A stretch of 14,671 nt of DNA from an uncultured bacterium (GTDB lineage Bacteria > Lernaellota > Lernaellaia > Lernaellales > Lernaellaceae). Location: positions 1-14,671 of the forward strand of contig CAZHPN010000155.1 of the NCBI GenBank assembly GCA_964534375.1. Reading direction: 5' to 3'. A program made the translations under genes and the position numbers. The notes beneath the pieces were generated by a model. That model was not told where the DNA came from. It searched no databases and saw only the letters and a program-made list of their open reading frames with translations. How positions within the stretch are numbered: the stretch's first letter is position 1; every line of letters starts with the position of its first letter. This document shows positions 3,222-14,636 of this stretch, piece after piece.

Positions 3222-5222
3222 ATGCGGAAGAAAGTCCTGATCGTCGCCTGTGAATTGCCGCCGTTGCCGGGTTTGCCGACCCGGGGCGGCGGGCTGCGCA
3301 TTTGGGGGCTCGGCGAAGGGCTCAAGGCGCACGGGCACGACGTGCGTTACGCGCTGCCGAAGGCGGCCGTGCCGGCGGGCGTCGAATTGCCGGTCGAATT
3401 GGCGAATTTGCTGTACGAGCCCGAGACGTTGACCGAGACCGTGCTCGCCGCCGCGCCGGATGCGGTCATCGTCGAGCAGTGGGGCCTCGCGACTTACCTC
3501 GACGATTTAAAAATTCCGCTGGCCATCGATTTGCACGGCCCGCTGTCGCTCGAAAACGCCTTTAAAGAGGAAAGCAACTTTCTTTCCGACGCGCTGACGA
3601 AAATCGATGCGTTGGCGAAGGCCGATCTGCTGATCTGCCCGGGCGAATATCAGCGACAATATTTTCTGAGTTGGTTTTTGCTCGCAGGCGCCGCGCCGCG
3701 GCAGGCGCCGACGATCGTCGTGCCGATCGGGTTCCCGCCGACGCCGCCCGCGCGCCGCGAACCGGAGAACCTGCGCTTCGTTTTCGGCGGCGTGACCTGG
3801 CCGTGGATCGACCCGTTCCCCGGCCTCGAAATCCTCGCGCGCCGCGTCGCCGCGCACGAGACCGCCGCGCTGGATTTATTCGTCGGCGCGCCGGCCATGA
3901 ATTATCAGCATCCGCTCTACGCGATCAACAAGAACATCTTCCGCGATTACGGCGAGCGGCTGGCGAACCTCGCGCGCGTGGCCTTCCACGACCTGACGCC
4001 CCGCGAGCAATTGCTCGACGTCTACGCCGGAGCGTCGGTCGCGTTCGACCTTTATCAGCCGAACCCCGAACGCCAACTCGCCGTCACCACGCGCACGGTC
4101 GAATATCTCTGGTGCGGCCTGCCGCCGCTTTACGGCGATTACGGCGAATTGGCCGCGCCGATCCGCCTGTACGACGCCGGCTGGGTCGTCGATCCGGCCG
4201 ACGAAAAAGCGATCGGCGCCGCGCTGGACGAAATCTTCGGCGACCCGGCGAGCGTCCGTCGCAAAAGCGCCAATGCGCAGCGCCTCGCCATGGAGCGTTT
4301 CGCGTGGGACCGCGCCGCGGCGCCGCTCGCGCGCTTCCTCGACAGCCCAACGATCCGCGAGAAAAAACCGACGCTGCTGGCCGGCTTCCGCGACTATTTC
4401 CGCAAGGAAAGCGTGAACCAGATTCTCGCGGCCAAAGAGCAGGTCGGCAAACTCAACGAGGCCCTGCGTGAAGCGGCCGTGCAGGCCGACGCCGACCGGC
4501 GCGAACGCGACAAGAAGCACGAAGACCTGTCGCTCGAATTCAAAAAGTTCCAGCAGGAAAACGACCAGCGGCTGAGCCGCCAGGCCGATCTGCACCGCGA
4601 AGAACTCGGCCGCAAGGAAGACGACCTGCGCCGCCAGCAGGAAAAGCTGGATCGCGAAATCGAGAAGCGCGACGCCGAAAACGAACGCCTGCGCGCCGAG
4701 CAAAAGTCCGCGGTGGCCGAGGCGTATGAAGAAATCGCGCGGCTGAATCAAGACAAGGAAGCTCAGCGGCTGGCGCACGAAGAAGAAGTCCGCGGCCTGG
4801 TCGCCGTGCACGATGCGGCGATGGCCGAGCGTCGCGCCGAGGCCGAGCGCCAAAGCGGCCTGATCGAGCAACTCGCGCAGGAACGCGACGCCGTCAAAGC
4901 GACGATGGCCGGCCGGCTGGCGGAGATCGAACGCGCGGTCGCCGACAAAGAGCGCTACGTCGAAACGGCCGAGCGCCGCCTGGGTGAAATGGAAGCCGAG
5001 ACCGCGACGCTACGCAAACGCGCCGCGCTGCTCGAGCGCCGCCTCGCCGATTTCGAAGACGACGAGAAATTGAAAACGCGCGCGCGCCGGCGGTTCCGGC
5101 TGGTGCGGCTGGTTGCGCAGGCGCCGCGGCTGGCGTGGCTGCTCGCGGTCAACCTCGGCGCGAATATCTATATGAAGATTTACGAAAAGCGGAAGGGAAT
5201 TAAGATTTTCCCGGGGACCTGA
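3222..5222 (+). CDS. GT4-like (GT-B) glycosyltransferase with long C-terminal coiled coil and amphipathic tail
   Basis: N-terminal 'KVLIVACE...GGGLRIWGLGEGLKAHGHDV', later 'TTRTVEYLWCGLP' and 'ERFAWDRAAAPL'. About 220 aa of E/K/R/A/Q-rich heptad sequence follow, then a basic/hydrophobic C-terminal helix. Confidence 0.85.
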   Translation: MRKKVLIVACELPPLPGLPTRGGGLRIWGLGEGLKAHGHDVRYALPKAAVPAGVELPVELANLLYEPETLTETVLAAAPDAVIVEQWGLATYLDDLKIPLAIDLHGPLSLENAFKEESNFLSDALTKIDALAKADLLICPGEYQRQYFLSWFLLAGAAPRQAPTIVVPIGFPPTPPARREPENLRFVFGGVTWPWIDPFPGLEILARRVAAHETAALDLFVGAPAMNYQHPLYAINKNIFRDYGERLANLARVAFHDLTPREQLLDVYAGASVAFDLYQPNPERQLAVTTRTVEYLWCGLPPLYGDYGELAAPIRLYDAGWVVDPADEKAIGAALDEIFGDPASVRRKSANAQRLAMERFAWDRAAAPLARFLDSPTIREKKPTLLAGFRDYFRKESVNQILAAKEQVGKLNEALREAAVQADADRRERDKKHEDLSLEFKKFQQENDQRLSRQADLHREELGRKEDDLRRQQEKLDREIEKRDAENERLRAEQKSAVAEAYEEIARLNQDKEAQRLAHEEEVRGLVAVHDAAMAERRAEAERQSGLIEQLAQERDAVKATMAGRLAEIERAVADKERYVETAERRLGEMEAETATLRKRAALLERRLADFEDDEKLKTRARRRFRLVRLVAQAPRLAWLLAVNLGANIYMKIYEKRKGIKIFPGT

Positions 5223-7756
5223 TGAATATCCTGATGCTCCATCCGCACGACGTGTACTCCAATTCGGAGCCGTGGACCGTGCGCATCACCTATCTCGCGA
5301 GCGAGATGGTCAAGCGCGGGCATCACGTGCGGCTGATTTATCACCTGCTCGATCCGCGCGTCAGCCTGGAAGAGGCCACCGCGCGCCAGGATTTTCCGTT
5401 CACCACGATTCCCGCATACCGCCATCAGATGACGCTCGTCGCCAAGATGAAGAGCGCGGTCGAATTCGCGCGCTGGGCCGACGTCATCCATTTTCAGAAG
5501 TGCTTCCCGCACGTCAGCGTCCCGGCGGTCTGGGCCGGATATAAATTGGGTAAACCGGTCCATTACGATTGGGACGATTGGGAATACGGCATTTTCAATT
5601 ACAACCCCGGCAACCGCGTCGTCGGCCGGACGATCGATATTTTCGAGCGGATCCTCCCGCGCCTCGCGGACACCGTGAGCGTCGCCTCCGACGCCTTGCG
5701 CGAGCGGGCGCTGGCGCTCGGCGTGCGGCCGCAGCGGATTTTCGAAGCGCACGTCGGCGCGGACTTAACGCATTTTCGGCCCGATATTTCCGGCCATCGC
5801 GTGCGGGCGCTGCACCACATCGAAGGGCCGATGGTGTTGTACCTCGGCCAGCTTCACGGCGCGCAATATCTCGAACTGTTTCTCCACGCGGCGAAAATCC
5901 TGATCGAACGCGGCTCGCCGGCGGTGTTCGTGGTGGTCGGCGGCGGCGACCGCTTTGGCGAATTGTTCCAATTGACCGAGCAACTCGGCATCGGCCACCG
6001 CGTCGTGTTCACCGGCGCGGTCGATCACAACGAAATTCCGGAATACGTCGCCGCGGCCGACGTATGCGCGGCGTGCTTCGAAGACACCGAACAGCAGCGC
6101 TCGAAAAGCCCGCTCAAGATTTGTGAATATCTCGCCGCAGGCAAGGCGATCGTCGCCAGCCGCGTCGGCGAAGTTCCGCACATGGTTGGCGACGCCGGTG
6201 TGCTGGTCGAGCCGGGCAACGTCGAGCAACTGGCAGGCGGCATCGAGCGCCTGCTGGCCGATCCGATGTGGCGGCGCGAGCTGGGCGCAAAGGCCCGGCG
6301 GCGCGCGGAAATGAAATATAACTGGGGCGTGACGGCCGAGAATCTGCTGCTCGCCTATGAGGCGGGCCTGCGCGAACGTCGCTGGCTTTTCTGGCAGACC
6401 GAACCGAAAAAAAAAACTTCTGAGCTAGCCGCGGATGGGCGAGGCCGGTCGGACGGGTCGGACAAGTCGGACACGTCGGACAAGCCCGGCGCAGCCGACG
6501 ACAACCGTGCCGTGCCGGCCGACGGCCTGCTCGGCCGCGTGCGCGGTTTCGTCGAGGCCAATCTCGATCTGGTTGGCGCGCTCGACGGCCGCGAGAGTTA
6601 CATTGGGCCGCACACGGTGCAGATCGACCCGACCAACCGCTGCAACAACGATTGCCTCGCTTGCTGGTGCAACAGCCCGCTGCTGCTCGACAAGGCGCTG
6701 CCGAGTCCGAGCCGCGACGCCGTGCTGCCGCTGCCGCTGATCGTGCAATTGCTCGACGACATGACCGCGCTCGGCAGCAAAGAGGTCTACCTCGCCGGCG
6801 GGGGCGAGCCGTTTTGCCATCCGGACATCAAACGCATCGTCGCCGAAATCAAGGCGCGCGGCCTGATCTGCAACATCAACACGAATTTCACGCTGATCGA
6901 CGAAGAGACGGCGCGTTTTCTCGCCGAGCAGCGCGTCGATTTCATGACTGTCTCGGTCTGGGCGGGGACGCCGGAAACCTACAGCCTGCTGCACCCGAAC
7001 AAGACCGAAGAAACGTTCGTGCAGATCAAAAACATCTTGCGCTATCTCAACGCGACCAAGCGCGAGGTCCCGCGCATCAAAGTCTACAACGTCATCAGCA
7101 ATATCAATTTTCAGGAATTGCCGGCGATGATCGACTTCGCGCTGCAGACCGGTTCGGAATCCGTCGAGTTCACCGTGCTCGACGTCATCCCCGGCCGCAC
7201 CGACGGCCTGCTGCTCGATGAAAATCAGCGCCGCTGGCTCCACGCGGAAGCGCTCCGCCAGCGCGAGCGGATTGAGCGCGAAACGCCGCCGCGGCTGCAC
7301 CTCTTCAAATACGACCAATTCCTGCGGCGCATCGGCGGCGAACACACGCTGGCCGGCGAACACGACAAGACGATCGTCGACGCCCTGCCCTGCACCGTCG
7401 GCTGGCAGTTCGCCCGCGTGCTGGCCGACGGCAACGTCAACCAATGCCTGAAGGCGCACCGCATTCCCGCGGGCAACTTGCGCGACGTGCGTTTCCGCGA
7501 CCTCTGGACCGGCCCGCGCCAGCGCGATTGGCGCGCGAAAACCAACGTGCTGGAAAAAAGCGACGCGTGGTTCGCGCAGATCGGCAACGACCCGGAGGCG
7601 CGGGTCGGCTGCTATAAATCCTGCGACGACCTCGGCCGCCTCGAACACCTCGCGCGGCGCTATCAGGCGCTGACACCGACGCAGCGCGCGGCGCTCAAGG
7701 GCGCGGCGCTGTGGCTGCGCGCGCGCGGCAAGCACTTGCAATCGGCGGACGCATGA
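5222..7756 (+). CDS. GT4 glycosyltransferase - radical SAM (SPASM/Twitch-type) fusion protein
   Basis: aa 1 to about 390 are GT4 ('MNILML', 'RGHHVRLI', 'KSPLKICEYLAAGKAIVASRVG', 'YNW'). After a low-complexity linker come the radical SAM CxxxCxxC motif 'CNNDCLAC' (6641-6664), 'AGGGEPF', and C-terminal cysteines 'PCTVGW...NQC...GCYKSC'. The start overlaps the previous stop (TGATG). Confidence 0.9.
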   Translation: MNILMLHPHDVYSNSEPWTVRITYLASEMVKRGHHVRLIYHLLDPRVSLEEATARQDFPFTTIPAYRHQMTLVAKMKSAVEFARWADVIHFQKCFPHVSVPAVWAGYKLGKPVHYDWDDWEYGIFNYNPGNRVVGRTIDIFERILPRLADTVSVASDALRERALALGVRPQRIFEAHVGADLTHFRPDISGHRVRALHHIEGPMVLYLGQLHGAQYLELFLHAAKILIERGSPAVFVVVGGGDRFGELFQLTEQLGIGHRVVFTGAVDHNEIPEYVAAADVCAACFEDTEQQRSKSPLKICEYLAAGKAIVASRVGEVPHMVGDAGVLVEPGNVEQLAGGIERLLADPMWRRELGAKARRRAEMKYNWGVTAENLLLAYEAGLRERRWLFWQTEPKKKTSELAADGRGRSDGSDKSDTSDKPGAADDNRAVPADGLLGRVRGFVEANLDLVGALDGRESYIGPHTVQIDPTNRCNNDCLACWCNSPLLLDKALPSPSRDAVLPLPLIVQLLDDMTALGSKEVYLAGGGEPFCHPDIKRIVAEIKARGLICNINTNFTLIDEETARFLAEQRVDFMTVSVWAGTPETYSLLHPNKTEETFVQIKNILRYLNATKREVPRIKVYNVISNINFQELPAMIDFALQTGSESVEFTVLDVIPGRTDGLLLDENQRRWLHAEALRQRERIERETPPRLHLFKYDQFLRRIGGEHTLAGEHDKTIVDALPCTVGWQFARVLADGNVNQCLKAHRIPAGNLRDVRFRDLWTGPRQRDWRAKTNVLEKSDAWFAQIGNDPEARVGCYKSCDDLGRLEHLARRYQALTPTQRAALKGAALWLRARGKHLQSADA
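6407..6416 (+). repeat. A10 homopolymer in the GT/radical SAM linker
   Basis: CCG AAA AAA AAA ACT TCT GAG CTA G; the longest homopolymer I found in the window. Confidence 0.9.
6448..6483 (+). repeat. 9-bp tandem repeat (GTCGGACnn) x4 encoding SDG-SDK-SDT-SDK
   Basis: GTCGGACGG GTCGGACAA GTCGGACAC GTCGGACAA read directly from the sequence. Confidence 0.9.
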
Positions 7757-8379
7757 CCGAGTTCTTTTATCGCGACGACCGCGCCGAGCGGCCATGGCGT
7801 TTGGCGAACGTGCCCTTGCGCGTTGAACGTCCGGACGATCTGCCGGCGCGCGTCGCTGAATTGCTCGCGGCGGGAAAGGCGGTCGGCTGGTTTCAGGGCG
7901 GGTCCGAGTTCGGTCCGCGCGCGCTGGGGCAGCGCAGCATCCTTGCCGACCCGCGCGACCCGAACATGCCCGCATTTCTGAACGAGCGCATCAAGCACCG
8001 TCAGTGGTTCCGCCCCTACGCGCCGGCGGTGCTGCTCGAGCATCTGCCCGAGTGGTTCGAACTCGACGCGCCGAGCCCGCACATGCTGCTCGTCGCGCGC
8101 GTGCGGCCCGAAAAGCGCGCGGCAGTGCCGGCGATCGTGCACGTGGACGGCACCGCCCGCATTCAGACCGTCGCACCGGAGAGCGGGCCGTTTCGCCGCG
8201 TCATCGAAAGTTTCCACGCGGTGACCGGCGTGCCGCTGGTGCTCAACACGAGTTTCAACGACCACGGCGAACCGATCGTCGAAACGCCGCTCGACGCTTA
8301 TCAATGCTTCGCCGCGACCGATCTCGCGTTTCTCGCGATCGGGCCGCTGCTGATCGCGAAGGACGGCTCCCATGGCTAA
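7753..8379 (+). CDS. Carbamoyltransferase C-terminal (YrdC-like) domain, stand-alone protein (CmcH/NodU/TobZ family)
   Basis: 'VGWFQGGSEFGPRALGQRSILADPR', 'IKHRQWFRPYAP' (KxRxxxRP), 'AIVHVDGTARIQTV' and 'VLNTSFN...EPIVETP'. The start is placed at ATG 7753, which overlaps the upstream TGA (ATGA), rather than the ORF-track start at 7711. Confidence 0.92.
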   Translation: MTEFFYRDDRAERPWRLANVPLRVERPDDLPARVAELLAAGKAVGWFQGGSEFGPRALGQRSILADPRDPNMPAFLNERIKHRQWFRPYAPAVLLEHLPEWFELDAPSPHMLLVARVRPEKRAAVPAIVHVDGTARIQTVAPESGPFRRVIESFHAVTGVPLVLNTSFNDHGEPIVETPLDAYQCFAATDLAFLAIGPLLIAKDGSHG

Positions 8380-11056
8380 GCCGCTTTGCGTCGTCGGCGC
8401 GGTCGTCAGCGACCACGACAGCGCGGTGGCGCTCGTCGTCGACGGCCGGCTCGTCGCGGCGATCAACGAAGAGCGACTGTGCCGCGTGCGCCGCGGCGAT
8501 CCGCGCAACAGCGTGCGGCGGGCGCTCAATTACGTTCTCGCCGAGGCGGGCCTGACGCCGGCCGACATCGATCTCGTCGCGTGCGATACCGCCTATTACT
8601 ACCCGCCCGGCGGCCATCCGCCGATCGCCGTATTCCCCGATTTCCCCGATGAAAAAATCGTGCTGCTCGATCATCACCTCGGGCACGCCGCGTCGGCGTT
8701 TCTGCCGAGCCCGTTTGACGAAGCCGCGGTGCTCACCGTCGACGCTTCCGGCGGCGTCGCGCCGCTGACCGCCGACCGCCGGCGCTGGGGTTTTCGGCCC
8801 GCCGATCTCGCGTTCCGCGACCGCGGCTTTCGCGCGGCGCATCGCCATCCGACCGTCGCGGAACTGCTGCGCGCGCATCCCGAAGCCGAGGCCCGCAACT
8901 ACCCCGCCGAGAGCCTGACCCTCGGCCATGCGGTGCGAGGCGAGCGGTTCGTCGAAATCGAAGACCAGATGGCCGGCGGTAGCCTCGGCTATTTCTACGC
9001 GATCTGCGCGCATTTCCTGGGTATGGAGGAAGGCAGCTTCATGGGTTTGGCGGCGCACGGCGGGCCGAACAAATTCGATGAATTGTTCAGACAGATTCTG
9101 CGAATCGAAAGCGACGGCCGCTTGACGCTCGATCCGGATTGGCTGCGGTTCTGGGCGGACGATCGCGTGCTGGAAGACCCGGTGTCGTTCAAGCGTCTCG
9201 CGCCGCGCTGGTTCGAGACCTTCGGTCAGCCGCGCCGGCCCGACGATGATATTTCGCCACGCGACAAGGATTTCGCCTGGTCGGCGCAACATCGTTTGGA
9301 AGAAGCGCTGGCGCACATCGCAACCCGCCTGCGGCAGCTCACGGGCAGCCCGAATCTCTGCCTCGCCGGCGGCGTCGCGCTCAACAGCGTTGCCAACGGC
9401 AAGCTCATCGCGCGCGCCGGCTTCGAGCGCGTGTTCATTCAGCCGGCGGCAAGCGACGACGGCATCGCGCTCGGCTTCGCGTTGTTCGCCGATTACGTGC
9501 TCGCGGGCGTTCCGGCGAAAAAGCGCTGGACGATGACCGACGCCGCGACCGGGCGTACGTATCCCGAGGCGGATATCGCCGACTTCTTCGCGCGCCTGCA
9601 AAGCGGCCGGCTGCCGCTGGAATATCTCGCGGCGATTCCGGGAACGCGGCGCGTGGATGTCGTGTGGTCGATCGGCGGCGGCGCTCCGCAACGGACCGCG
9701 ATGGCCTACGACGAACCCGCTCGCCGGTGGCGCGCCGAATTGCCCGTGCCGGTCGGCGCCGCGGTCGAATATTCGTTCGAGAGTTTCGGCGACCCGATCG
9801 AGACCTATCTGCTAGCCGAGCCGCCGTCCGCGCCAGCGCCCGCGGCCGAGAAAACGGATCTGCCCGCGGAATTTCGCAAATTTCTGGATGACCACCGCGA
9901 TCTGGCCGGCGCGCTCGACGGCGAACGCGCCTTCATCGGGCCGGAGCACGTGGTGATCGACCCGACCAATCGCTGCAACAACAATTGCCTGCCGTGCTGG
10001 ACCAACTCGCCGCTGCTCGGCGACTTCGGGCCGCCGGCCTCGTGGGCGCGGCAGGAAATGCCGGCCGAAATGCTGCTGCGGCTGATCGACGAACTCGCGA
10101 CGCTCGGCGCCAAGCGCCTCCGCTTCACCGGCGGCGGCGAGCCGCTGCTGCACCCGGCGATTTTCCCGGCGATCGAACGCGCCAAGGCCCGCGGCCTGAT
10201 TTGCGCGCTGACCACCAACTTCAGCGTCATCGACGACGCGGGCGTGCGGCGCCTGGCCGCCGCGGGGCTCGATGAATTGACAGTCAGCCTGTGGGCTGGC
10301 TCGGCGGCGATTTACAGCCGCAGCCATCCGAACAAAACGGAAAAAACCTTCGCGGAAATCGAGCGGCACTTGCGGCTTTACGCCGAGTGCAAGCGGCCCG
10401 GCGCCGAAATCGTCATGGCCAACGTGCTCTTCTCGATGAACTTCATGGAGTCGCGCGAGATGCTCGATTTCGCCCTGCGCGTCGGCGCCGACGGCCTGTA
10501 TTTCGCGCTGGTCGATTCCGTCCACCCGCGCACCGACGGCCTGCTGCTCGCCCCGCCGCAGTTGCGGATTCTGCGCCAACACCTCGGCGACGTGCGCCGG
10601 CGCGTGGACGAGGTGCGCGCCGCCGGCCGGCTGTTCCGCCTCGACAATTGGGACGGCCTGCTGGCGCGCGTCGAGGCGGCGGGCGCGCCGCGCGGCGATT
10701 ATGATCAAGCCGCGGTCGAGGCGATTCCGTGCTACGTCGGTTGGATGTTCGCACGCGTGCTGCCGACCGGCGAAGTCGCGCCGTGCTGCCGCGGCGTCAA
10801 CAAGCCGCTCGGCGATTTGCGCCGGAAATCGTTCGCCGAAATCTGGCATGGCGAAAAAGCCCGCGAGTTTCGCCGCATGGCCTTGCGCGAATCCAAGCGC
10901 CACCCCTATTTCGCGGCGATCGGCTGCCGCCGCGTCTGCGACAACCTGATGCACAACGGCGAGTTTCACGCGCGAATGCAGCGCCTGACCGCCGAAGAGC
11001 GCGCGCAGTTGCGGCGGTTCATCGTCGACGTCGAACCGGCCGGGCCGGCGCGATGA
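8372..11056 (+). CDS. Carbamoyltransferase N-terminal (Kae1-like) domain - radical SAM (SPASM/Twitch-type) fusion protein
   Basis: 'HDSAVALVVDGRLVAAINEERLCR', 'HHLGHAASAF', 'TVDASG', 'MGLAAHG', 'LCLAGGVALNSVANGK' and 'IQPAASDDGIALG'. Then the CxxxCxxC motif 'CNNNCLPC' (9974-9997), 'TGGGEPL' and 'PCYVGW...PCC...GCRRVC'. 8-nt overlap with the upstream gene. Confidence 0.92.
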   Translation: MAKPLCVVGAVVSDHDSAVALVVDGRLVAAINEERLCRVRRGDPRNSVRRALNYVLAEAGLTPADIDLVACDTAYYYPPGGHPPIAVFPDFPDEKIVLLDHHLGHAASAFLPSPFDEAAVLTVDASGGVAPLTADRRRWGFRPADLAFRDRGFRAAHRHPTVAELLRAHPEAEARNYPAESLTLGHAVRGERFVEIEDQMAGGSLGYFYAICAHFLGMEEGSFMGLAAHGGPNKFDELFRQILRIESDGRLTLDPDWLRFWADDRVLEDPVSFKRLAPRWFETFGQPRRPDDDISPRDKDFAWSAQHRLEEALAHIATRLRQLTGSPNLCLAGGVALNSVANGKLIARAGFERVFIQPAASDDGIALGFALFADYVLAGVPAKKRWTMTDAATGRTYPEADIADFFARLQSGRLPLEYLAAIPGTRRVDVVWSIGGGAPQRTAMAYDEPARRWRAELPVPVGAAVEYSFESFGDPIETYLLAEPPSAPAPAAEKTDLPAEFRKFLDDHRDLAGALDGERAFIGPEHVVIDPTNRCNNNCLPCWTNSPLLGDFGPPASWARQEMPAEMLLRLIDELATLGAKRLRFTGGGEPLLHPAIFPAIERAKARGLICALTTNFSVIDDAGVRRLAAAGLDELTVSLWAGSAAIYSRSHPNKTEKTFAEIERHLRLYAECKRPGAEIVMANVLFSMNFMESREMLDFALRVGADGLYFALVDSVHPRTDGLLLAPPQLRILRQHLGDVRRRVDEVRAAGRLFRLDNWDGLLARVEAAGAPRGDYDQAAVEAIPCYVGWMFARVLPTGEVAPCCRGVNKPLGDLRRKSFAEIWHGEKAREFRRMALRESKRHPYFAAIGCRRVCDNLMHNGEFHARMQRLTAEERAQLRRFIVDVEPAGPAR

Positions 11057-12938: not shown

Positions 12939-13949
12939 ATGAAGTACGTTGATGCAATAAACAAAAAGCTGGTTCCGACGCGAAACGGCGGACCGAAGAC
13001 GGTTGATTTGTTTGCCGGCTGCGGAGGTTTGGCGCTTGGTTTTGAAGCGGCCGGTTTTGAAACTATCGGGTACGAAATAAACGCTGACTGTACCGAAACG
13101 TATAACAGGAACTTGGCCGGGACCTGCCACAACGTCGCGTTGACCAAGGAAACGCCGCTGGAGTCGTGCGATGTGATCATCGGCGGCCCGCCCTGCCAAC
13201 CGTTCAGCGTGCGGGGTCATCAAAACGGGTTAGCGGACTCCCGCGACGGTTTTCCCACATTTATTTCGGCCGTCGAGCGATTGCGCCCGGCACTATTTCT
13301 GTTCGAGAACGTTCGCGGTCTTTTGTATCGCAACGGCTGGTATTTGGACGAAGTGATCGAGCAGCTTAAAGCTCTCGACTATGTCGTGGAGAAGCAGCTC
13401 GTCAACGCCCGGCATTTCGGCGTGCCGCAGAACCGGGAACGCTTGATTGTCGTCGGACACACGGGCGACTTCTTCTGGCCAAAACCGGTCAAGTACATGG
13501 TGACGGCTGGCGAGGCGCTCGGCGAATTGGCCTTTCAAACCCCGCCGGGGTCTAAGTTTTTGACACGCAGCATGGACGAATATGTTGCCCGATATGAGAA
13601 GGCGTCCTTTTGCACGGTTCCGCGCGACTTGCATTTGGACCGGCCCGCGCGGACGCTCACGTGCCGAAATCTCGCTGGCGCGACCAGCGACATGCAACGA
13701 ATCAGACTTCCCGACGGACGGCGGCGCCGATTGACCGTGCGCGAGGCTGCACGTCTGCAAAGTTTTCCCGATTCGTTCGAGTTTGCAGGCGGCGAAACGA
13801 GCCAATACAACCAAATCGGCAACGCCGTTCCGCCGTTGCTTGCGTTGCATTTGGCCGAGCGCGTGATGGCCTATCTTGAATCCCGAGGCGTTGATGAGTC
13901 GAGGCCGAAAAAGCAGCAGACGACCGGCCGGCAACTTGCGCTTATTTAA
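12939..13949 (+). CDS. DNA (cytosine-5)-methyltransferase of a type II R-M system
   Basis: Motif I 'DLFAGCGG', IV 'GGPPCQPFS', VI 'FENVRG', VIII 'VPQNRER', IX 'RRLTVREAARLQSFP' and X 'QIGNAVPP', all present and in order. Confidence 0.96.
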   Translation: MKYVDAINKKLVPTRNGGPKTVDLFAGCGGLALGFEAAGFETIGYEINADCTETYNRNLAGTCHNVALTKETPLESCDVIIGGPPCQPFSVRGHQNGLADSRDGFPTFISAVERLRPALFLFENVRGLLYRNGWYLDEVIEQLKALDYVVEKQLVNARHFGVPQNRERLIVVGHTGDFFWPKPVKYMVTAGEALGELAFQTPPGSKFLTRSMDEYVARYEKASFCTVPRDLHLDRPARTLTCRNLAGATSDMQRIRLPDGRRRRLTVREAARLQSFPDSFEFAGGETSQYNQIGNAVPPLLALHLAERVMAYLESRGVDESRPKKQQTTGRQLALI

Positions 13950-13961
13950 GAGGTCCTTCAT

Positions 13962-14636
13962 ATGCCGAACACGCAGGGAATCCTCGGCGGCGACCGGACT
14001 TGCAAAACATTTGCCGCCAAGACGTCAAAAAGACGCGAGTTGATCAACGAAGCTCTCGATATTTTGTCGGCTTTCGGGATTCCGATGACAGGAACCGCGA
14101 GAGCGCTTGAACGCATGGCGGAAGCGTTCCTGGCGGTTGCGGACGTAACAAAATTGCAAGGATGGGCCAAGGCGAAGAGTCTTTCCGACGGCCGATCTCT
14201 CAAGACGAGAGACATCATCGAGTACGTAAACCGCCACTTTGGCGAAAATATTTCGAGAGGTTCCTACGATGACGTTAGGCGGCGAGATCTGTTGCTTCCC
14301 GTGACGGCGAAAATCGTCGTTTCAACGGCGCCGGGTTCGGCGCGAAACGCGCCCAATCGAGGTTACGCGTTGAGTGTCGAGCACTGTGCCTTGATTAGAA
14401 AGTTCGGGAAATCGGGTTGGCGATCGGACGTGGAGAATTTCGCCGCGAAACGGGGGCGATTGGCCGACGCCCTAAGTTCCGCTCGGAATTTGGAACGCCA
14501 TGAAGTTGTTATCAGCGCCGATCGGAGGTTGGACTTAGGCCCTGGCGAACACAATCTTCTTCAAAAGAAGATCGTCGAGGAATTGCTTCCGCGTTTTGGT
14601 TTCGGCGCCAAGGTGCTCAGGGCTCCGGCATGTTGA
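13962..14636 (+). pseudogene. BsuBI/PstI-family type II restriction endonuclease, truncated before its catalytic C-terminal region
   Basis: GAGGT SD 7 nt upstream. 'INEALDILSAFGIP', 'ENISRGSYDDVRR' and 'LGPGEHNLLQKKIVEELLPRFG' resemble this family. Homologues as I recall them continue 'xVLYVGDT...' for more than 100 aa, but here 'AKVL' runs into 'RAPAC*'. Confidence 0.75.

Follow-up and report, generated by a model that had tools for sequence, protein, structure and literature searches.

In the dnaX gene of Thermus, the closest described system to the one reported here, an A9 run with near stops in both non-zero frames gives rise to two products in a ratio of about 1:1, as outlined in PMC1088944 and PMC5009743. 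In those sections of the literature that treat run length, the slippage threshold is placed at about nine or more A/T (PMC1088944), the RNA–DNA hybrid is given as 9–10 bp (PMC5009743, Fig. 18 legend), and for the E. coli RNA polymerase no slippage is recorded below 7 T or 8 A (PMC6260861). Here we describe a run of ten A residues (A10), which exceeds this threshold, in a gene encoding a glycosyltransferase (GT) of the GT4 type fused to a radical SAM/SPASM protein. The gene is located on a 14,671-nt stretch of DNA (contig CAZHPN010000155.1 of assembly GCA_964534375.1), hereafter the window, from an uncultured bacterium whose genome is designated G000. Comparison of this gene with its orthologues makes it somewhat probable that the A10 is a selected recoding signal of the dnaX type, which most likely acts through RNA polymerase slippage and gives a GT-only protein beside the fusion. 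The features of the gene are as follows.

5222..7756, forward strand: fused gene of 844 amino acids (aa), GT4 + linker + radical SAM/SPASM (open reading frame (ORF) list, translation, Pfam)
5222..6403, forward strand: GT4 (GT-B) domain, aa 1–394, equal in size to entire stand-alone orthologues, 380–405 aa (Pfam, tblastn)
6404..6541, forward strand: low-complexity interdomain linker, aa 395–440 (protein alignment)
6407..6416, forward strand: A10 tract, K396–K398 and the first base of T399, the proposed slippage site (window sequence)
6421..6423, forward strand: TGA in the frame with one A more (the frame of a -1 ribosomal shift), formed by the rare Ser codon TCT and GAG
6426..6428, forward strand: TAG in the frame with one A fewer (the frame of a +1 shift), formed by the rare Leu codon CTA and GCC
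6542..7753, forward strand: radical SAM/SPASM domain, absent from the predicted slipped products (Pfam, motif in the translation)

The GT4 matches in Pfam (Glyco_trans_4_4, Glycos_transf_1 and Glyco_trans_1_4, all above cut-off) span aa 20–376. A Glyco_trans_4_4/Glyco_transf_4 N-terminal half is followed by a Glycos_transf_1 C-terminal half, with scores of 50.9, 40.4 and 90.6 bits against 29.7, 28.5 and 26.4. The second part of the protein matches Radical_SAM at aa 470–640 (69.3 bits, cut-off 29.5) and SPASM at aa 724–773 (31.0 bits, cut-off 21.5), and the CxxxCxxC motif of the radical SAM domain reads CNNDCLAC in the translation. No named NCBIfam model reaches its cut-off for this half, and a PDB sequence search with it returned weak matches only (PqqE, E 5.7e-5). 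The GT4–radical SAM fusion is an uncharacterised enzyme family.

The A10 tract lies between the end of the GT4 matches and the start of Radical_SAM. Positions 6404–6430 read CCG-A10-CTTCTGAGCTAGCC, with the codons CCG AAA AAA AAA ACT TCT GAG CTA GCC. The zero frame is open for all 844 aa, the TGA stands two codons and the TAG three codons past the run, and the predicted slipped products are 400 aa (..KKKNF) and 401 aa (..KKKLLS) long. A first-pass annotation made from the letters alone had pointed to the A10, to a stop in each shifted frame and to a site just past the GT4 domain, and its positions agree exactly with ours. Its description of the surrounding codons as atypical holds for ACT, TCT and CTA, which account for 2.5% of Thr, 2.0% of Ser and 0.9% of Leu codons in the genome, and fails for AAA, which makes up 44% of Lys codons. 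Both hidden stops are thus created by very rare codons. When the 30 downstream codons were recoded synonymously by the gene's own usage, both stops came this near in 0.46% of 5,000 trials. The linker directly 3′ of the A10 also holds a 9-nt tandem repeat, GGTCGGACA, present four times with 88% matches at 6447–6482 and encoding SDG/SDK/SDT/SDK (Tandem Repeats Finder).

The tract is present at the DNA level. Logan contigs from two DNA runs span it without a gap (X1, record 7, 6202–7218; X2, record 10, 5591–6524), and the metagenome contig L101, which is 100% identical to the window, also carries A10; the samples behind X1, X2 and L101 may include the source sample. Since all of these contigs show ten A's, the A10 is no one-off homopolymer miscount, and the assembly error that the first-pass annotation had named as a possible refutation is ruled out. 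Such runs are rare in the genome (6.3 Mb, 64% GC, 381 contigs), where no A/T run exceeds 10 nt and three reach that length. Among its 2,592 long GC3-rich ORFs, the coding strand has 40 runs of A8, no A9 and a single A10, the tract of the fusion gene. The two other runs of the genome were inspected as well. At G000:C286:851-860 a noncoding T10 directly follows a GC-rich hairpin, GCCCCGCGAGGGGC, past the end of an ORF; it looks like a putative intrinsic terminator. The other coding A10, at G000:C108:3195-3204 (L144 796-805), has an A8 43 nt upstream and lies in the N-terminus (MTEKKSRK...ETKKKERG) of a 170-aa ORF whose family is unknown.

The conservation of the run was assessed in 44 distinct junction-bearing orthologues (43 and the partial L143). 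Exact duplicates (L021–L027, L101, L102, L104), loci in which no GT match extended to query residue 370 (L066, L068, L084, L090, L096, L099) and non-orthologous loci were left out of the counts. All 17 genomes of the window's class were sampled. In the phylum of the second clade, 14 of the 87 genomes had a match, and one further partial junction, L143, carries A10. A metagenome scan gave 16 loci, four of them with the junction: L101 from the same organism, L102 and L104 as duplicates of L007 and L013, and L103, a new junction with A10. The fused ORF is one open frame of 815–1080 aa in all family and class relatives holding it, and its linker, 40–727 nt long across the orthologues, is hypervariable in length and sequence. 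Within this linker the run is exactly A10 in 21 of the 44 genes and an in-frame A9 in one (L043); runs of 11 or more A's are found in none of the 44.

The run-bearing genes fall into groups in which the run occupies different places. Group (a), from families f1, f2 and f4 of the window's small class, comprises ten genes with the run after a WL[FY]W motif. In group (a'), which consists of L009 and L013 from genus g10 of family f3, this first site has decayed (AAG AAG in L009, A7 in L013) and a replacement A10 is found about 155 nt deeper in the linker (L009 2839-2848, L013 2842-2851), where the shifted frames again stop at once (KKKNP*, KKKNS*, KKK*). This relocation looks like turnover of a putative site. 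Group (b) comprises nine genes from genomes of 30–49% GC, some labelled Cloacimonadota, with the run after AYHLGxG, and group (c) is L055 from one metagenome-assembled genome (MAG) of Planctomycetota. Past the last conserved GT helix, the run starts after 16 residues in (a) and 5–6 in (b), both counted after AY, and after 14 in (c), counted after the aligned F. The run thus has four linker positions overall, and its flanking residues are unrelated among groups (a), (b) and (c). A/T runs of at least 10 are rare in the related genomes too, with 2–7 sites per genome in five relatives and about 7–27 in five genomes of groups (b) and (c); in every one of these ten genomes the GT–radical SAM junction is one such site.

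The codon phase of the run is not fixed either. Two phases occur, both of them in each large group. Most genes read AAA AAA AAA ANN (KKKT/S/I); in group (a) the second phase is CAA AAA AAA AAC (QKKN), seen in L002 and L015, and group (b) has AAG AAA AAA AAA ATT as well as NAA AAA AAA AAG (Q/EKKK), the latter in six genes. For the phase to move with ten A's kept, the bases at the two ends of the run have to change in concert. Six further columns of the GT domain in which eight group-(a) genes all have Lys served as a control, and AAA was found in 20 of their 48 cells; same-codon identity at identical residues is 34–70% between pairs of group-(a) genes. Since AAA and AAG are mixed at the control columns, shared ancestry fails to explain the unbroken AAA codons of the run. 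The run is conserved at the nucleotide level beyond what the peptide needs, and on these alignments the conserved thing is the base run and not the peptide. A reading in which the run has no function at all, being a basic KKK patch left from an old intergenic spacer and written in AAA by chance and shared ancestry, is therefore hardly credible. The 44% share of AAA makes KKK as A9 not very unlikely in one genome, and the two-domain tree described below is compatible with one ancient origin; this account is nevertheless at odds with the mixed control columns, with a run length that is kept while the peptide changes to QKKN or EKKK, with the relocated run of L009 and L013, and with the absence of other A runs of at least 9 in the long ORFs of G000.

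The same survey bears on replication slippage, by which the DNA run itself would switch the radical SAM half, and perhaps the downstream genes, in subpopulations. Homopolymers mutate at a high rate, and genes for surface glycans are well-known contingency loci. That replication can slip on runs of this kind is also noted in PMC1088944. All 22 run-bearing assemblies, which come from different groups, are however in frame, 21 with A10 and one with A9, with neither an A11 nor a broken frame among them, although consensus assemblies hide minority alleles and switching at low frequency would be invisible in them. Since the GT half alone served as query in the orthologue searches, alleles with a broken frame would have been picked up. 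The contigs of the two DNA runs and the metagenome contig are all A10 with no indel listed. Among the best 120 of 479 short matches in a collection of 5.8 billion proteins, no short GT protein exceeds 69% identity; the best matches are 62–69% identical and are either truncated by the end of a contig or lack a K run at their C-terminus. Phase variation of the radical SAM step, which had been offered as one outcome of the tract, is disfavoured by these data, and we regard it as very unlikely.

The distance to the nearest stop in the shifted frames was compared among the orthologues. In 21 of 21 genes tested, both shifted frames stop within 0–21 codons. In the high-GC group the median distance to an off-frame stop is 11–171 codons, and the fraction of ORF positions that have an equally near or nearer stop is 0.01–0.25, except for one frame of L009 with 0.46. 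The -1 frame, equivalent to one additional A, was examined in 12 clade-(a) genes and ends 1–5 codons past the run in 8 of them; L003 keeps the same two stops as the window although its Ser is replaced by Pro. Synonymous recoding gave P values for both frames of 0.0008–0.05 in seven genes; the signal is strong in L001 and L003 and modest (0.02–0.05) in L006, L009, L013, L052 and L055. Taken together, the near stops are real and apparently in part selected in the window's lineage, and the run is the main conserved element.

A further regularity was observed in eight low-GC genes (L041, L042, L043, L045, L050, L052, L053, L056). Their frame with one A fewer ends at one place, about 24 nt past the run (..VSNF*, ..VSYF*, ..ASSF*), where the stop is made up of a conserved Leu codon and the following A. 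This codon is TTG, CTG, CTA or TTA and in these genes never CTC or CTT, which would abolish the stop; the recoding test is not significant here.

The GT half also exists on its own. A free-standing GT of 380–405 aa is widespread, occurring in Omnitrophota, Woesearchaeota, MAGs labelled Methanosarcinales and others, and in a quick tree of 80 GT rows, the fused genes have as their sister clade 36 stand-alone orthologues, with a support of 100 in the Shimodaira–Hasegawa-like approximate likelihood ratio test (SH-aLRT). The tblastn alignments with stand-alone GTs stop at query residues 379–399. The predicted slipped product has the size of the free-standing GT and includes its terminal C-terminal helix. 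A GT-only form is evidently natural and, judged by these homologues, functional. None of 41 non-fused GT orthologues, many of them from genomes of 25–45% GC, has A9 or longer at its 3′ end, which ties the run to the fusion. In L072 (3740-3960), from a MAG labelled Desulfobacteraceae, GT and radical SAM are separate genes that meet in an ATGA stop/start overlap without a homopolymer. An A9 found 29 nt past the GT stop in L083 was rejected as a counterpart; it encodes the N-terminal HKKK of the next gene and is unrelated to the junction run. The suggestion of the first-pass annotation that one gene yields a GT-only protein of about 400 aa together with the 844-aa fusion thus draws strong comparative support from the exact run length, the phase independence, the restriction to fused genes, the short tails and the GT-sized orthologues.

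With regard to the history of the run, the well-supported branches of the 80-row GT tree force at least four gains or losses of the A10 label. Either the run is ancient and would have survived a protein divergence of about 50%, or it would have arisen repeatedly; both would point to function, and the relocated run of L009 and L013 favours turnover. Some fused genes are frame-broken away from homopolymers: L016/L066 (G016), with breaks in L066 at GT residues 181/182 and at radical SAM residue 779, and L090, around residues 309–334. These breaks were not counted as slippage alleles; they represent pseudogenes or assembly errors.

A role of the run at the nucleotide level might also be imagined without two products, the run being a poly(A) pause that aids the folding of the GT domain, or a site of mRNA processing or decay, with any frameshift products as noise. 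In favour of this, the run is confined to the interdomain linker and independent of codon phase, as a pause signal would be, and hidden stops of the low-GC clade that bear no sign of selection fit the same idea. It leaves unexplained, however, why the length is exactly 10 rather than 9–13, why very rare codons make stops in both frames in L001 and L003, and why the run is linked to a family whose common form is the GT-only protein. We consider a role of this kind improbable.

We propose the following course of events for the slippage reading. The mRNA with a templated A10 would be translated into the 844-aa GT4–radical SAM fusion. In a share of cases, the frame would shift at the run and translation would stop 2–3 codons further on, at the TGA at 6421 or the TAG at 6426, the outcome being a GT-only protein of about 400 aa, the size of the free-standing orthologues. 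The slipping step would be a realignment of the RNA polymerase on the T10 template, leading to transcripts with A9 or A11; we infer that ten A's would let the 9–10 bp RNA–DNA hybrid shift by one base without a mismatch. The minimum of 8 A recorded for the E. coli enzyme also fits a need for a run longer than the 7 bases that suffice for a ribosomal shift site. No significant RNA structure flanks the run (z -0.49 for the upstream 70 nt, z -1.13 for the downstream 84 nt), as would be expected for structure-independent slippage on a long homopolymer, and scans for terminators and promoters around the run found nothing. That slippage takes place, that it does so at the transcriptional level and that the GT-only product is used are predictions from these patterns.

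The same two proteins could be made by ribosomes that shift frame or slide on a uniform A10 mRNA, with a -1 shift on A_AAA_AAA, A_AAA_AAC or A_AAA_AAG. Ribosomes are able to slide on runs of AAA codons in E. coli. Every run contains an in-phase X_XXY_YYZ heptamer, which is A_AAA_AAA in the window, and six second-clade genes have A_AAA_AAG, the shift site of E. coli dnaX. The -1 stop 1–5 codons past the run in 8 of 12 clade-(a) genes likewise fits a ribosomal shift. A ribosomal shift, however, needs only 7 bases in a fixed phase, whereas ten bases are kept here in either of two phases, and no flanking RNA structure stands out: no stable structure was found downstream (z -1.13), and the hypervariable downstream linker makes a conserved stimulator unlikely. 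No GGAGG-like element is found within 20 nt upstream of the run in the window, a result still compatible with low-level shifting. We regard ribosomal frameshifting or sliding as rather unlikely, and RNA polymerase slippage remains the preferred reading.

Several observations weigh against programmed slippage. Of the 44 fused orthologues, 22 have no linker run of at least 9, the sole runs of 8 among them being an A8 in L028 and a G8 in L030. The run is thus dispensable for a working fusion. In 12 other genes the recoding P values are 0.05–0.86, so that selection for hidden stops is uneven, and in the low-GC group off-frame stops are common everywhere and the tails are unremarkable. The two-domain tree of 34 rows, which omits f3 and f4 and from which L008–L014 (ORF off the locus) and L005 and L016 (incomplete GT match) were left out, forces only one change and is compatible with a single ancient origin of the run followed by losses. 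The run is spanned by none of the assembled contigs of two RNA-library runs: those of 99+% identity lie at 5224–5609, 6413–6631 and 7105–7291 in X5 and at 5225–5415 and 7368–7593 in X6. One X5 contig, with a depth of 2.5, starts inside the run (6413), which low coverage or poly-A trimming can explain. As to the level of the shift, the in-phase heptamers speak for the ribosome, and slippage by the E. coli polymerase is described in PMC6260861 as better on T than on A runs; the polymerases of the organisms considered here may differ.

The regions on both sides of the fusion gene encode further enzymes. Its direct neighbours are the following.

3222..5222, forward strand: 666-aa gene upstream of the fusion gene, weak GT4 matches (ORF list, Pfam)
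7711..8379, forward strand: gene whose sole domain is Carbam_trans_C, sharing 46 nt with the end of the fusion gene (ORF list, Pfam)

Both GT4 matches of the 666-aa ORF are below the Pfam cut-off. Base 5222 belongs both to its stop and to the ATG of the fusion gene, an arrangement suggestive of translational coupling. Downstream, the carbamoyltransferase is split and permuted: the 222-aa Carbam_trans_C-only ORF is followed by an overlapping 894-aa ORF (8372-11056), which joins Carbam_trans_N to a second radical SAM/SPASM domain, with about 40% identity to that of the GT fusion. The 46-nt overlap is a possible context for coupling or polarity. The glycan cluster is preceded by genes of the enoyl-CoA hydratase-like and thiolase types (7-2496) and by a 150-aa ORF (2513-2965) without a family match. 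On the other side, a C5 cytosine DNA methylase gene (12939-13949) precedes a BsuBI/PstI-type restriction endonuclease gene (13962-14636, cut by the window end); beside the glycan cluster, the two look like a putative type II restriction-modification pair.

The A10-bearing hosts are uncultured bacteria of wetlands and sediments (a small class resembling Deltaproteobacteria, a Cloacimonadota-like clade and the Planctomycetota MAG). The chances are evenly balanced for the wider proposal that an old slippage site, kept across several phyla, would "un-fuse" a two-domain biosynthetic enzyme at the RNA level and set a fixed ratio of free GT to fusion, with decayed sites replaced by new ones at another place in the linker, of which L009 and L013 would be examples. 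We speculate that a free GT could be of benefit through stoichiometry, through a second acceptor or through polarity that lowers the expression of the downstream carbamoyltransferase and second radical SAM genes. The gene fusion would then be partly reversible at the level of expression, allowing the stoichiometry of its domains to be tuned. The locus would also be a conserved programmed slippage site that is chromosomal, non-mobile and outside the replicase, a rare dnaX-type case in a metabolic gene. For annotation, two proteins per gene would have to be recorded in place of the one that automated pipelines report, and exact-length A/T runs in the linkers of fused genes with split orthologues could serve as a search rule. 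Full-text literature searches found no report of slippage in a GT–radical SAM gene among the matches listed, as judged by title or abstract.

In the screen described in PMC1088944, Baranov et al. left truncating slippage out, as it creates no new coding sequence and is hard to judge by comparison. Sites of this type go almost unnoticed in comparative screens. In the present case the signal is the run itself, with its exact length, its phase independence, its positional turnover and its restriction to fused genes, and the comparative support for putative dnaX-type slippage is unusually clear. In the surface-glycan glycosyltransferase genes of Neisseria, Haemophilus and Campylobacter, homopolymer tracts near the start of the gene differ in length from strain to strain and switch the gene ON or OFF. 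The run described here resembles these phase-variable loci in being a homopolymer within a gene for glycan modification whose shifted frames stop early, and differs from them in its position at a domain boundary and in its length, fixed at 10 and in frame in 21 assemblies.

Bacterial A/T runs of about nine are known as RNA polymerase slippage sites from genes of IS elements and from the type III secretion genes mxiE and spa13 of Shigella, according to the examples treated in PMC1088944 and PMC5009743. In those genes slippage joins two ORFs into a longer product, whereas in the fusion gene the frame is unbroken in the DNA, and a slip would give a shorter product. With the -1 frameshift of E. 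coli dnaX, the locus shares the predicted short and long product from one ORF and, in six second-clade genes, an in-phase A_AAA_AAG. Unlike in E. coli dnaX, which relies on an SD-like (Shine–Dalgarno-like) element and a downstream hairpin, no flanking stimulators were found, and the run is phase-independent and three bases longer than the shift site needs. The dnaX gene of Thermus thermophilus (tau/gamma) encodes a replicase subunit and carries A9 instead of A10, whereas the run of the biosynthetic GT4–radical SAM fusion lies in a variable linker, has changed position between lineages and is predicted from sequence to be a slippage site. As far as the Thermus system is covered in the sources cited, the two nevertheless share the same design: a long sense-strand A run is part of one ORF, the long product comes from the zero frame, stops stand near in both other frames, and any slip by other than a multiple of three leads, or here would lead, to a truncated protein without the C-terminal domain(s).

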